64,000 nt of DNA. It comes from Escherichia coli. GTDB lineage: Bacteria; Pseudomonadota; Gammaproteobacteria; Enterobacterales; Enterobacteriaceae. The stretch lies in the NCBI RefSeq assembly GCF_016026235.1, contig NZ_CP065613.1; one strand, written 5' to 3'. Positions within the stretch are counted from its first letter, which is position 1, and every line of letters starts with the position of its first letter. Below the pieces are notes generated by a model. The model did not search any database. It had not been told where the DNA came from and saw only the letters and a program-made list of their open reading frames with translations. Positions 21,720-33,504 of the stretch are shown here, piece after piece. Made by a program: the position numbers and the translations under genes.

Positions 21720-21830
21720 TTTTTATTCGGGCGGATAAGGCGTTTTCGCCGCATCCGCCGCTCTGTACACAATGCCTGATGCGACGCTGGCGCGTCTTAT
21801 CATGCCTACAAACCACACCGCACATTTCAA
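21720..21830. repeat. REP/BIME element downstream of proX
   Basis: gcggataaggcg...cgccgcatccgcc and gcctgatgcgacgctggcgcgtcttatcatgcctac palindromic units. Confidence 0.8.
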
Positions 21831-21896
21831 CTGATCTTACCCAGCAATAGTGGACACGCGGCTAAGTGAGTAAACTCTCAGTCAGAGGTGACTCAC

Positions 21897-22196
21897 ATGA
21901 CAAAAACAGTATCAACCAGTAAAAAACCCCGTAAACAGCATTCGCCTGAATTTCGCAGTGAAGCCCTGAAGCTTGCTGAACGCATCGGTGTTACTGCCGC
22001 AGCCCGTGAACTCAGCCTGTATGAATCACAGCTCTACAACTGGCGCAGTAAACAGCAAAATCAGCAGACGTCTTCTGAACGTGAACTGGAGATGTCTACC
22101 GAGATTGCACGTCTCAAACGCCAGCTGGCAGAACGGGATGAAGAGCTGGCTATCCTCCAAAAGGCCGCGACATACTTCGCGAAGCGCCTGAAATGA
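21897..22196 (+). CDS. insE: IS3 OrfA (InsE), HTH DNA-binding transposase N-terminal part
   Basis: 99-aa [32 protein letters not shown]... Confidence 0.9.
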
Positions 22197-23059
22197 AGTA
22201 TGTCTTTATTGAAAAACATCAGGCTGAGTTCAGCATCAAAGCAATGTGCCGCGTGCTCCGGGTGGCCCGCAGCGGCTGGTATACGTGGTGTCAGCGGCGG
22301 ACAAGGATAAGCACGCGTCAGCAGTTCCGCCAACACTGCGACAGCGTTGTCCTCGCGGCTTTTACCCGGTCAAAACAGCGTTACGGTGCCCCACGCCTGA
22401 CGGATGAACTGCGTGCTCAGGGTTACCCCTTTAACGTAAAAACCGTGGCGGCAAGCCTGCGCCGTCAGGGACTGAGGGCAAAGGCCTCCCGGAAGTTCAG
22501 CCCGGTCAGCTACCGCGCACACGGCCTGCCTGTGTCAGAAAATCTGTTGGAGCAGGATTTTTACGCCAGTGGCCCGAACCAGAAGTGGGCAGGAGACATC
22601 ACGTACTTACGTACAGATGAAGGCTGGCTGTATCTGGCAGTGGTCATTGACCTGTGGTCACGTGCCGTTATTGGCTGGTCAATGTCGCCACGCATGACGG
22701 CGCAACTGGCCTGCGATGCCCTGCAGATGGCGCTGTGGCGGCGTAAGAGGCCCCGGAACGTTATCGTTCACACGGACCGTGGAGGCCAGTACTGTTCAGC
22801 AGATTATCAGGCGCAACTGAAGCGGCATAATCTGCGTGGAAGTATGAGCGCAAAAGGTTGCTGCTACGATAATGCCTGCGTGGAAAGCTTCTTTCATTCG
22901 CTGAAAGTGGAATGTATCCATGGAGAACACTTTATCAGCTGGGAAATAATGCGGGCAACGGTGTTTAATTATATCGAATGTGATTACAATCGGTGGCGGC
23001 GGCACAGTTGGTGTGGCGGCCTCAGTCCGGAACAATTTGAAAACCAGAACCTCGCTTAG
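22193..23059 (+). CDS. insF: IS3 OrfB (InsF), DDE transposase catalytic domain
   Basis: 288-aa ORF in the -1 frame relative to OrfA, overlapping it by 4 bp, as expected for a programmed -1 frameshift OrfAB fusion. Confidence 0.9.
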
Positions 23060-23171
23060 GCCTGTGTCCATATTACGTGGGTAGGATCACAACAAGCTAT
23101 CTTTCGCCCCCATTCATAAACATCCGCTATTATTGATTTCCAGCTTAATCATCACCTGATAAACAAAAATA

Positions 23172-24356
23172 ATGACTAAACCCACTCATGAGCTTAGCCC
23201 GGCGCTGATCGTGCTGATGTCGATCGCCACCGGTCTGGCGGTCGCCAGCAACTATTACGCCCAACCGCTGCTCGACACTATTGCGCGTAACTTTTCCCTC
23301 TCCGCCAGTTCGGCGGGCTTTATTGTTACCGCCGCGCAGTTGGGCTATGCCGCAGGTCTACTGTTTCTTGTTCCCCTCGGTGATATGTTTGAACGCCGCC
23401 GCCTGATTGTCTCGATGACCTTACTGGCAGCGGGCGGTATGTTAATCACTGCCAGCAGTCAGTCACTGGCGATGATGATCCTCGGTACGGCATTAACCGG
23501 TTTATTCTCAGTCGTGGCACAAATTCTGGTTCCGCTGGCAGCGACGCTGGCTTCACCGGATAAACGCGGCAAAGTGGTTGGCACCATTATGAGCGGTCTG
23601 CTGTTGGGGATATTGCTGGCACGAACCGTTGCCGGGTTACTGGCAAACCTCGGCGGCTGGCGCACCGTCTTTTGGGTTGCCTCGGTGTTAATGGCTCTGA
23701 TGGCGCTAGCATTATGGCGTGGTCTGCCACAAATGAAATCAGAAACCCACCTCAACTACCCACAGTTGTTGGGTTCCGTTTTCAGCATGTTTATCAACGA
23801 TAAGATCCTGCGCACCCGCGCATTGCTGGGCTGCCTGACTTTTGCCAACTTCAGCATTCTCTGGACCTCGATGGCCTTTTTGCTTGCCGCTCCACCTTTT
23901 AACTACAGCGATGGCGTAATTGGTCTGTTTGGACTTGCGGGAGCTGCCGGAGCGTTGGGCGCTCGTCCGGCGGGCGGTTTTGCCGACAAGGGCAAATCGC
24001 ACCACACCACAACATTCGGTCTGCTTCTGCTGTTACTTTCATGGCTGGCAATCTGGTTTGGTCACACTTCCGTACTGGCGTTGATTATCGGCATTCTGGT
24101 GCTGGACCTCACCGTACAGGGCGTGCATATCACTAACCAGACGGTAATTTATCGAATACATCCTGATGCGCGTAATCGCCTGACCGCAGGTTACATGACC
24201 AGCTACTTTATTGGCGGTGCCGCCGGTTCGCTAATTTCAGCCTCAGCCTGGCAACATGGCGGTTGGGCTGGCGTTTGTCTGGCTGGCGCGACGATTGCCC
24301 TGGTTAACTTACTGGTCTGGTGGCGAGGTTTTCATCGTCAGGAATCCGCAAATTAA
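23172..24356 (+). CDS. ygaY: MFS-family transporter (uninterrupted)
   Basis: 394-aa ORF with about 12 predicted hydrophobic segments; sits where K-12 carries the split ygaX/ygaY pseudogene, as I recall. Confidence 0.75.
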   Translation: MTKPTHELSPALIVLMSIATGLAVASNYYAQPLLDTIARNFSLSASSAGFIVTAAQLGYAAGLLFLVPLGDMFERRRLIVSMTLLAAGGMLITASSQSLAMMILGTALTGLFSVVAQILVPLAATLASPDKRGKVVGTIMSGLLLGILLARTVAGLLANLGGWRTVFWVASVLMALMALALWRGLPQMKSETHLNYPQLLGSVFSMFINDKILRTRALLGCLTFANFSILWTSMAFLLAAPPFNYSDGVIGLFGLAGAAGALGARPAGGFADKGKSHHTTTFGLLLLLLSWLAIWFGHTSVLALIIGILVLDLTVQGVHITNQTVIYRIHPDARNRLTAGYMTSYFIGGAAGSLISASAWQHGGWAGVCLAGATIALVNLLVWWRGFHRQESAN

Positions 24357-29663: not shown

Positions 29664-29735
29664 GAAAGACGCGCATTTGTTATCATCATCCCTGAATTCA
29701 GAGATGAAATTTTGGCCACTCACGAGTGGCCTTTT
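29664..29735 (+). ncRNA. micA: MicA (SraD) Hfq-dependent small RNA
   Basis: gaaagacgcgcatttgttatcatcatccctgaattcagagatgaaattttggccactcacgagtggccttttt matches the MicA sequence as I recall it, including its terminator hairpin; lies between luxS and gshA. Confidence 0.9.
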
Positions 29736-31373: not shown

Positions 31374-31802
31374 TTAGTGCCACCACATCATGCCCTGAAC
31401 GGTCGCTGCTGCAACTGCAACATAGCGTAACGCTTTACCAAGGCACAAAAAAAAGATTACCGGCCCCCAGGAGATGCGCATCCATCCCGCTAACAGACAC
31501 AGTAAATCGCCAACCACGGGCATCCAGCTTAATAATAGCGTGACTGCACCATAGCGTTTCAGCCAGCCGGTAGCTTTCTCTTGCCAGCGCGATGTTTTAC
31601 GCAATGGAAAGAAACGCCCAAGGATAACGTTAGTTAACCCTCCAAGGCTATTACCCATTGTTGCTGTTAAAACTAAAACCCAGGGATGACTGATCCCGGA
31701 AAGCAACATTGCCACCAGCACGACTTCGGAGTTGCCGGGTAATAGTGTAGCGCTGAGAAAACTACTGGCAAACAACGAGAAAAGCGATAACGCTTCACTC
31801 AC
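31374..31802 (-). CDS. yqaA: DedA-family inner membrane protein
   Basis: 142-aa hydrophobic ORF; synteny after gshA. Confidence 0.85.
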   Translation of the reverse strand: MSEALSLFSLFASSFLSATLLPGNSEVVLVAMLLSGISHPWVLVLTATMGNSLGGLTNVILGRFFPLRKTSRWQEKATGWLKRYGAVTLLLSWMPVVGDLLCLLAGWMRISWGPVIFFLCLGKALRYVAVAAATVQGMMWWH

Positions 31803-32183
31803 AGCAAGCGAACATCCACAGCGTCCATGCCTGCTGCACGGGCCGCCTGAATACCGAAATCGGCATCTTCAAAGACCACACACTGCGTCGGTTGCACGCC
31901 CATACGCTGCGCGCACAACAAAAATGTGTCTGGCGCGGGTTTATGGTGTTTGACGTGATCAGCAGCGACGACGGCGTCAAAATAACGGCGTAATCCCAGG
32001 TGCGCCAGCAATGCCTCAGCGATGGCGCTTTCACTCCCCGTTCCTACCGCCATTGGCCGACGTCCATGCCAACTGAAGACCGTAGTGCCCTAATACTTCG
32101 CGCCACGCTTTACGGTGCGTAGGCTCCGTATCCAGGATTGTGCCATCCATATCAAAAATTAAACCTGCATAACGCTCGTACAT
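31799..32183 (-). pseudogene. yqaB: HAD-family sugar phosphatase YqaB disrupted by an internal deletion with frameshift
   Basis: Hand translation: ATG at 32183 gives MYERYAGLIFDMDGTILDTEPTHRKAWREVLGHYGLQ (HAD motif I) then out-of-frame LAWTSANGGRNGE and stop at 32031-32033; the C-terminal 84-aa frame (32053..31799, MAVGTGSES...HKPAPD...FEDADFG, HAD motifs II-IV) is in a different frame; the cap-domain region between them is absent. Confidence 0.8.
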
Positions 32184-32465
32184 GGTCTTCTCGCAAGTCG
32201 AAAAATATGACGCTACTTTAGCGTAATTGCTTGATTTTGTCGCTGATGGAGAAGGAGAAGAAAATTCAGGAAATGGATAAAGTAGTTATTTAGAAATGAG
32301 ATATTTTTGAAGGAAATTTTTTGGAGAATATGGTGCATCTGGGAGGATTACTCGCCTTGCGGCTCGCCCTTCGGGCCGTTGCTAAAGCAACGTTATCCTC
32401 CCTGGTGCCTGCAGTTAATACCCCTACCTCTTCGATATCTTCATTGCTGAAGATTTCGGAGAATA

Positions 32466-32542
32466 TGGTGCATCCGGGAGGATTCGAACCTCCGACCGCT
32501 CGGTTCGTAGCCGAGTACTCTATCCAGCTGAGCTACGGATGC
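32466..32542 (-). tRNA. tRNA-Arg (anticodon ACG)
   Basis: Reverse complement GCATCCGTAGCTCAGCTGGATAGAGTACTCGGCTACGAACCGAGCGGTCGGAGGTTCGAATCCTCCCGGATGCACCA. Confidence 0.95.
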
Positions 32543-32740
32543 ATCGGGAAAATTTATTTTACTGCTGATATTGATATCGCTACTAAAGCCATATCAAGTA
32601 AGAGATGGTGCATCCGAGAGGATTACTCGCCTTGCGGCTCGCCCTTCGGGCCGTTGCTGGCGCAACGTTATCCTCCCTGGTGCCTGCGGTTAATTCCGCT
32701 ACCTCTTCGATATCTTCATTGCTGAAGATTTCGGAGAATA

Positions 32741-32817
32741 TGGTGCATCCGGGAGGATTCGAACCTCCGACCGCTCGGTTCGTAGCCGAGTACTCTATCC
32801 AGCTGAGCTACGGATGC
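32741..32817 (-). tRNA. tRNA-Arg (anticodon ACG)
   Basis: Identical 77-nt tRNA-Arg sequence. Confidence 0.95.
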
Positions 32818-33016
32818 ATCGGGAAACTTACTTTACTGCAGATTTTTTGATACCGCTACTAAAGCCGTATCAAGTAAGAGATGGTGCATCCGGGAGGATT
32901 ACTCGCCTTGCGGCTCGCCCTTCGGGCCGTTGCTAAAGCAACGTTATCCTCCCTAGTGCCTACGGTTAGTACCGCCACCTCTTCCATACCTTCATCGCTG
33001 AAAGTTACGGAGAATA

Positions 33017-33093
33017 TGGTGCATCCGGGAGGATTCGAACCTCCGACCGCTCGGTTCGTAGCCGAGTACTCTATCCAGCTGAGCTACGGATGC
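33017..33093 (-). tRNA. tRNA-Arg (anticodon ACG)
   Basis: Identical 77-nt tRNA-Arg sequence. Confidence 0.95.
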
Positions 33094-33096
33094 AAA

Positions 33097-33189
33097 TGGC
33101 GGTGAGGCGGGGATTCGAACCCCGGATGCAGCTTTTGACCGCATACTCCCTTAGCAGGGGAGCGCCTTCAGCCTCTCGGCCACCTCACC
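33097..33189 (-). tRNA. serV: tRNA-Ser (anticodon GCU)
   Basis: Reverse complement GGTGAGGTGGCCGAGAGGCTGAAGGCGCTCCCCTGCTAAGGGAGTATGCGGTCAAAAGCTGCATCCGGGGTTCGAATCCCCGCCTCACCGCCA with long variable arm. Confidence 0.95.
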
Positions 33190-33504
33190 ACACGCCTCTT
33201 ACGAGTGCTTCGAAGAACTTGTTTATCGCTCATCGTCGCTGCGTGGCGCACATATTACTTTCTGAGACTTATAAGTCAAACAATTTTTCCCACACTTTTA
33301 TCGTTTGCACACTTCACGCTCAATTAGTCTGTAAAAACGTCAAAAAGAGTGTTTTATCAACAGAAAAACGGAGGTCTGACAGATAGCAGTAATGTAAAAA
33401 AATGGAGACTTAAGTTGAATGAACGGGAGTAAAGCGAAAAGACTATAGAGTGAAGGAGAAATTTTGAGGGTGCGTCTCACCGATAAAGATGAGACGCGGA
33501 AAGA

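Follow-up and report, generated by a model that had tools for sequence, protein, structure and literature searches.

The yqaB locus and its neighbourhood

The DNA analysed here (the window) is a 64-kb stretch of Escherichia coli sequence in which yqaB keeps its orthologous position: the serV-argV tRNA array lies on one side and yqaA-gshA on the other, and yqaB and yqaA share a GTGA overlap. The closest known system is E. coli YqaB itself (UniProt P77475), which is described by NCBIfam model NF008000 as a fructose-1-phosphate/6-phosphogluconate phosphatase and by TIGR02009 as a beta-phosphoglucomutase/YqaB member of haloacid dehalogenase (HAD) subfamily IA; the order tRNA-Arg array, yqaB, yqaA, gshA is common to the two. 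In the literature YqaB has been used as a fructose-1-phosphatase and as a GlcNAc-6-P phosphatase (PMC6202814, PMC8775389). The features of the locus, together with other elements of the window, are collected in Table 1.

Table 1. Features of the yqaB locus and other elements in the 64-kb window.
Feature	Position	Strand	Remarks
naRNA4 (REP/BIME-type), three tandem copies	7398-7654	+	Between gabT and gabP
naRNA4/REP element	21729-21806		Directly adjoins the IS3 insertion
IS3 insertion, 1,258 bp	21832-23089		Between proX and the ygaY-like MFS transporter gene
ygaY-type MFS transporter gene	23163-24356	+	Intact 394-aa ORF
MicA sRNA	29664-29735	+	Between luxS and gshA
yqaA, VTT/DedA-family membrane protein	31374-31802	-	142 aa, intact; GTG start; PF09335 VTT_dom recorded for the same product
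yqaB pseudogene	31799-32183	-	385 bp versus 567 bp; by prefix/suffix identity to FDAARGOS_943 yqaB
C-terminal remnant ORF	31799-32053	-	84 aa, from native Met105; motifs II (GTGS), III (HKPAPD) and IV (FEDADFG)
N-terminal remnant ORF	32031-32183	-	50 aa; motif I DMDGT (11-15); native residues 1-37, then 13 out-of-frame, TGA
Deletion junction	32072-32074	-	3-bp AGT microhomology; by prefix/suffix overlap
Terminator-like hairpin and T-run	32210-32224	-	Between the tRNA-Arg array and the yqaB start; consensus scan alone; unchanged context, outside the lesion
tRNA array	32330-33189	-	Three tRNA-Arg(ACG) genes 275-276 bp apart and tRNA-Ser(GCT)

Several neighbouring elements differ between strains. 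Each spacer of the tRNA array holds a piece resembling a tRNA 3' end (AATCCTCCCGGATGCACCA), and one more spacer unit, devoid of a tRNA, precedes yqaB. The copy number and spacing of the tRNA-Arg genes vary by strain, with two copies in MC1061 and three, at 276/139-bp spacing, in FDAARGOS_943. The IS3 insertion is absent from K-12 MC1061 and is common to the window and FDAARGOS_943, whose annotation lists it as an IS3 family transposase. The ygaY-type transporter gene that follows it is a pseudogene in K-12, the MC1061 copy being annotated as frameshifted, and the tandem naRNA4 copies between gabT and gabP explain an extra ~270 bp relative to K-12. Some other E. coli lineages (loci L005, L006 and L010) carry a two-gene insertion between luxS and emrB, encoding RNA_ligase-domain and AAA_33/KTI12-like kinase-domain proteins, which is absent from the window.

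Extent of the deletion and the remnant reading frames

Intact yqaB measures 567 nt (188 aa) in both K-12 MC1061 and FDAARGOS_943. When the 385-bp copy in the window was compared base by base with the FDAARGOS_943 gene, an identical prefix of 112 nt and an identical suffix of 276 nt were found, overlapping by the three nucleotides AGT, and all 385 retained bases were 100% identical to the intact allele (zero substitutions). The missing segment is exactly 182 bp (nt 113-294, codons 38-98). The deletion is seamless: its junction consists of native sequence alone, with zero foreign bases. As 182 is not a multiple of three, the frame is shifted. The 182-bp deletion is confirmed as real and is not a chance pattern. 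The first-pass annotation had reported an internal deletion of about 0.18 kb with a frameshift, an N-terminal frame stopping 13 codons on, a C-terminal segment in a different frame, and a total of 385 bp where 188 codons would be expected from K-12; the base comparison and the two open reading frames bear this description out in full.

Read on the minus strand from 32183, the gene opens with its start codon and motif I (MYERYAGLIFDMDGTILD...), and the native frame holds to Gln37. The first product would thus comprise MYERYAGLIFDMDGTILDTEPTHRKAWREVLGHYGLQ followed by the out-of-frame LAWTSANGGRNGE and a TGA stop. The second ORF, MAVGTGSES...DVRLL, lacks the Asp nucleophile. In intact YqaB the four HAD motifs lie at D11-T15 (I), G108-S111 (II), H141-D146 (III) and F165-G171 (IV), and the deleted residues 38-98 sit between the first two, the place where subfamily-IA HAD enzymes carry their helical C1 cap. 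The four motifs are no longer on one polypeptide (motif I falls in the 50-aa ORF, and motifs II-IV are read in a different frame, that of the 84-aa ORF), and the module between motifs I and II is gone. Because Asp11 (nucleophile) and Asp13 (acid/base) would be carried by a different polypeptide from motifs II-IV, no active YqaB would be possible; HAD enzymology predicts that the locus yields no active enzyme.

Profile searches gave the same picture. The curated cut-off of NF008000 is 215 bits over profile positions 1-188, and the intact FDAARGOS_943 protein scores 393.8 bits across that full length. Both remnants fall under the cut-off and so below the equivalog score for YqaB, at 74.2 bits (profile 1-39) for the 50-aa fragment and 166.7 bits (profile 105-188) for the 84-aa fragment. 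Profile positions 40-104 have no counterpart in either fragment, and the earlier remark that the stretch corresponding to the cap domain is missing was right in substance. Unlike intact E. coli YqaB, then, the locus has no codons 38-98, has a broken frame and encodes only sub-threshold fragments; judged from these comparisons it is a pseudogene of the YqaB family and not a functional member.

Ancestral state, age and carriers of the allele

A 601-base probe of the yqaB locus was searched against 5,426 complete RefSeq E. coli genomes. It matched 5,425 of them, 5,423 of the 5,426 aligning over 80% or more of its length, and yqaB was annotated in every one among the matches listed. In the best 40 of the 5,425 matching genomes the alignment is broken in two and extends over 783 bases, exceeding the probe by 182; intact orthologues are thus not colinear with the window but align with a 182-base gap, as expected if the first-pass reading of an internal deletion is right. 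A second, 40-nt probe placed across the junction (GGGCACTACGGTCTTCAGTTGGCATGGACGTCGGCCAATG), in which neither flank reaches the 28 bases of the megablast word so that seeding needs the junction itself, found no match in any of the 5,426 complete genomes. Through residues 38-98 the intact 188-aa YqaB is colinear with solved HAD homologues (TM_1254, 3kbb; HDHD1A, 3l5k; beta-phosphoglucomutases), from which it follows that the short allele is the derived one. The locus therefore has the properties of a unitary pseudogene, with an ancestral intact state and a lesion that produces a frameshift and a premature stop.

The nearest intact relative lies very close. FDAARGOS_943 matches the whole 64-kb window at 99.87-99.95% identity (for example, 15 mismatches in 32 kb). 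Since the carrier sequence is ~99.9% identical to a genome in which yqaB is intact and the retained 385 bp are unchanged, the deletion is a very recent event inside one clonal lineage. FDAARGOS_943 has private lesions of its own that are absent from the window, namely an IS1 between csrA and serV (relative to window 33405-33418) and a truncated hycC, annotated as lacking its C-terminus (relative to window 62143-62218).

A 24-kb search, with a best identity of 98.4% and many repeated matches, had raised the suspicion of a decaying, Shigella-like genome. This was rejected. The window was tested for 62 K-12 genes. One of them runs off its edge, and yqaB is the sole broken gene among the 61 that are fully contained; NCBI labels the carrier E. 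coli, and the FDAARGOS_943 match rises to 99.9% once differences in IS elements and in the tRNA array are discounted.

Damage to yqaB is found in other lineages of E. coli and Shigella, always through different, independent mutations (motif I damage at the N-terminus or small frameshifts), none of them the 182-bp deletion. Near codons 95-104 there are 2-nt deletions in L005 and L006 (NCBI genome), an extra A in an A-run in L007, and a deletion of roughly 8-12 bp in L013; frameshift alleles of this kind come from GCA_037632705.1 and from Logan assemblies. A 177-aa form beginning at Met12, without the Asp11 nucleophile, is recorded for E. coli G58-1 (EGX06532.1) and others on 61 contigs. A 175-aa form of Shigella boydii Sb227 (ABB67348.1/Q31X60), also on 61 contigs, begins MIFLDTEP, so that motif I is destroyed.

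Repeated loss of yqaB in E. coli and Shigella is possible, and the frameshifts and the two shortened forms could be taken as a sign that inactivation brings an advantage, such as sparing sugar phosphates from futile dephosphorylation. Such selected loss is nonetheless improbable here: the near-universal alignment of the locus probe and the annotation of yqaB among all the matches listed speak against it, a number of the remaining yqaB lesions are known from low-coverage or draft assemblies and could be errors, and Shigella loses many genes neutrally. We give a similarly low weight to the wider proposal that yqaB is a recurrent target of inactivation whose loss is advantageous in some niches, with the 84-aa ORF kept translatable for the sake of yqaA coupling.

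Eighteen contigs of widely differing lengths encode precisely the 50-aa frameshift product. This figure is a minimum for the carriers, and some of the contigs may stem from one culture-collection strain sequenced more than once and not from independent isolates. The same junction was recovered in three assemblies: GCA_900449985.1 (UGFA01000002.1, a 4.56-Mb NCBI contig that matches 20 kb of the window at 100% identity), GCA_001907545.1 (LSGK01000005.1, from a separate NCBI draft, 100% identity over 9.5 kb) and the Logan assembly of ENA run ERR3331069 (1 mismatch in 9.3 kb). Multiple alignment of the carrier loci retrieved showed an identical yqaB gap in all. Loci elsewhere in which an 84-aa ORF is called separately were considered as extra carriers and rejected, as they reflect unrelated small frameshifts, N-gaps or contig ends.

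These carriers bear directly on whether the 182 bp are present in the strain and were merely lost in sequencing or assembly, an option raised in the first-pass annotation. The absence of the junction from all complete genomes would fit such an artefact, and some other split yqaB calls clearly are artefacts, arising at N-gaps (L008, L012) or at contig ends (L010, L011). The deleted segment is non-repetitive, however, which leaves no cause for an assembly collapse, and one junction is agreed on by three assemblies from different projects and assemblers and by at least 18 contigs. An assembly error is therefore very unlikely.

Consequences for yqaA and origin of the deletion

The YqaA protein is identical in the window and FDAARGOS_943. 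It had been noted that the C-terminal yqaB frame overlaps the yqaA start by 4 bp and that yqaA translation could be affected. The suggestion holds in part: the GTGA overlap is indeed present, but intact alleles have it too as their native arrangement (in L001, yqaB runs from 3118 to 3684 and yqaA from 3681 to 4109). New in the deletion allele is that a ribosome initiating at the yqaB ATG reaches a stop codon 228 nt before the yqaA GTG, and coupling to yqaA may thereby be lost. There is no strong Shine-Dalgarno sequence in the 30 nt upstream of that GTG. A promoter scan of the yqaB remnant gave no convincing candidate able to drive yqaA; the lone consensus-level site, of a kind found at background frequency, falls inside yqaA and was rejected. 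Translation of yqaA may thus be lowered by the lost coupling, possibly with Rho-dependent polarity.

The geometry of the remnants would also allow the locus to retain a role, with the 84-aa ORF translated by termination-reinitiation and yqaA kept coupled. The ATG at 32053 lies 20 nt upstream of the stop of the 50-aa ORF (TGA, 32033-32031), the 84-aa ORF ends in the native overlap, and yqaA has no strong ribosome-binding site of its own in the 30 nt before it. Against this, the ATG at 32053 is not preceded by a Shine-Dalgarno sequence, and an 84-aa fragment deprived of strand 1 and motif I cannot form a HAD core. We consider a retained role about as improbable as an assembly error. A deliberate knockout, also suggested in the first-pass annotation, has a clean interruption and the popularity of yqaB as a metabolic-engineering target to recommend it, but it is scarcely credible for an allele occurring in several assemblies in a non-K-12 background (~98.3% identical to K-12), with an out-of-frame, internal deletion that keeps both gene ends, where a designed one would be in frame or run from start to stop, and with a junction of native sequence overlapping by AGT that has neither a foreign scar or cassette nor codon-exact boundaries.

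With the artefact and engineering readings disfavoured, the remaining suggestion of the first-pass annotation, strain-specific pseudogenisation, is the one supported. AGT is the sole sequence common to both breakpoints, and, as about 5% of random junctions would share at least 3 bp, it says little for any one mechanism. A search for direct repeats longer than AGT coinciding with the breakpoints found none, and the single-stranded secondary structure of the intact segment did not differ significantly from shuffled controls (z = -0.9); a hairpin or a longer direct repeat was accordingly rejected as the cause. The lesion resembles the short-homology (illegitimate) deletions of bacteria in its internal loss of ~10^2 bp and in a very short flanking direct repeat of which one copy is kept. 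Unlike typical examples, its repeat is just 3 bp and no hairpin pairs the ends, so that no mechanism can be assigned with confidence; illegitimate recombination at short homology or replication slippage is tentatively taken as the default.

The best explanation, to which we give a probability of about 0.9, is a clone-specific, recent and spontaneous 182-bp deletion that inactivated yqaB and was most likely neutral. This one event joined two AGT triplets within the gene, probably by illegitimate recombination of a microhomology-mediated or slippage type, taking with it the codons at the cap site between HAD motifs I and II and shifting the frame. Translation from the yqaB start would then end after 50 residues, and Asp11 and Asp13 would be parted from motifs II-IV, leaving no active enzyme. 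About two dozen HAD phosphatases are present in E. coli, and their specificities overlap. Given this overlap, neutral loss is the most economical reading and the pseudogene is probably neutral. Downstream, yqaA is intact, though its expression may be reduced, as ribosomes now stop short of its start.

The deletion allele is an ordinary lineage-specific pseudogene of a well-known gene, and it is already present in public assemblies, mis-annotated there as two coding sequences. In the NCBI deposits the 50-aa half appears as STM06280.1 and the 84-aa half as STM06281.1, each under the name 'putative phosphatase [Escherichia coli]'; the two should be replaced by one pseudogene. A literature search found no paper describing this allele, or yqaB as a pseudogene in E. 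coli. The junction makes a clean clonal marker for this lineage: none of the 5,426 complete E. coli genomes has it, and at least three public assemblies do. Together, the deletion strain and FDAARGOS_943, 99.9% identical and with yqaB intact, form a natural near-isogenic pair for the study of yqaB-yqaA coupling or of the phenotype of YqaB loss.
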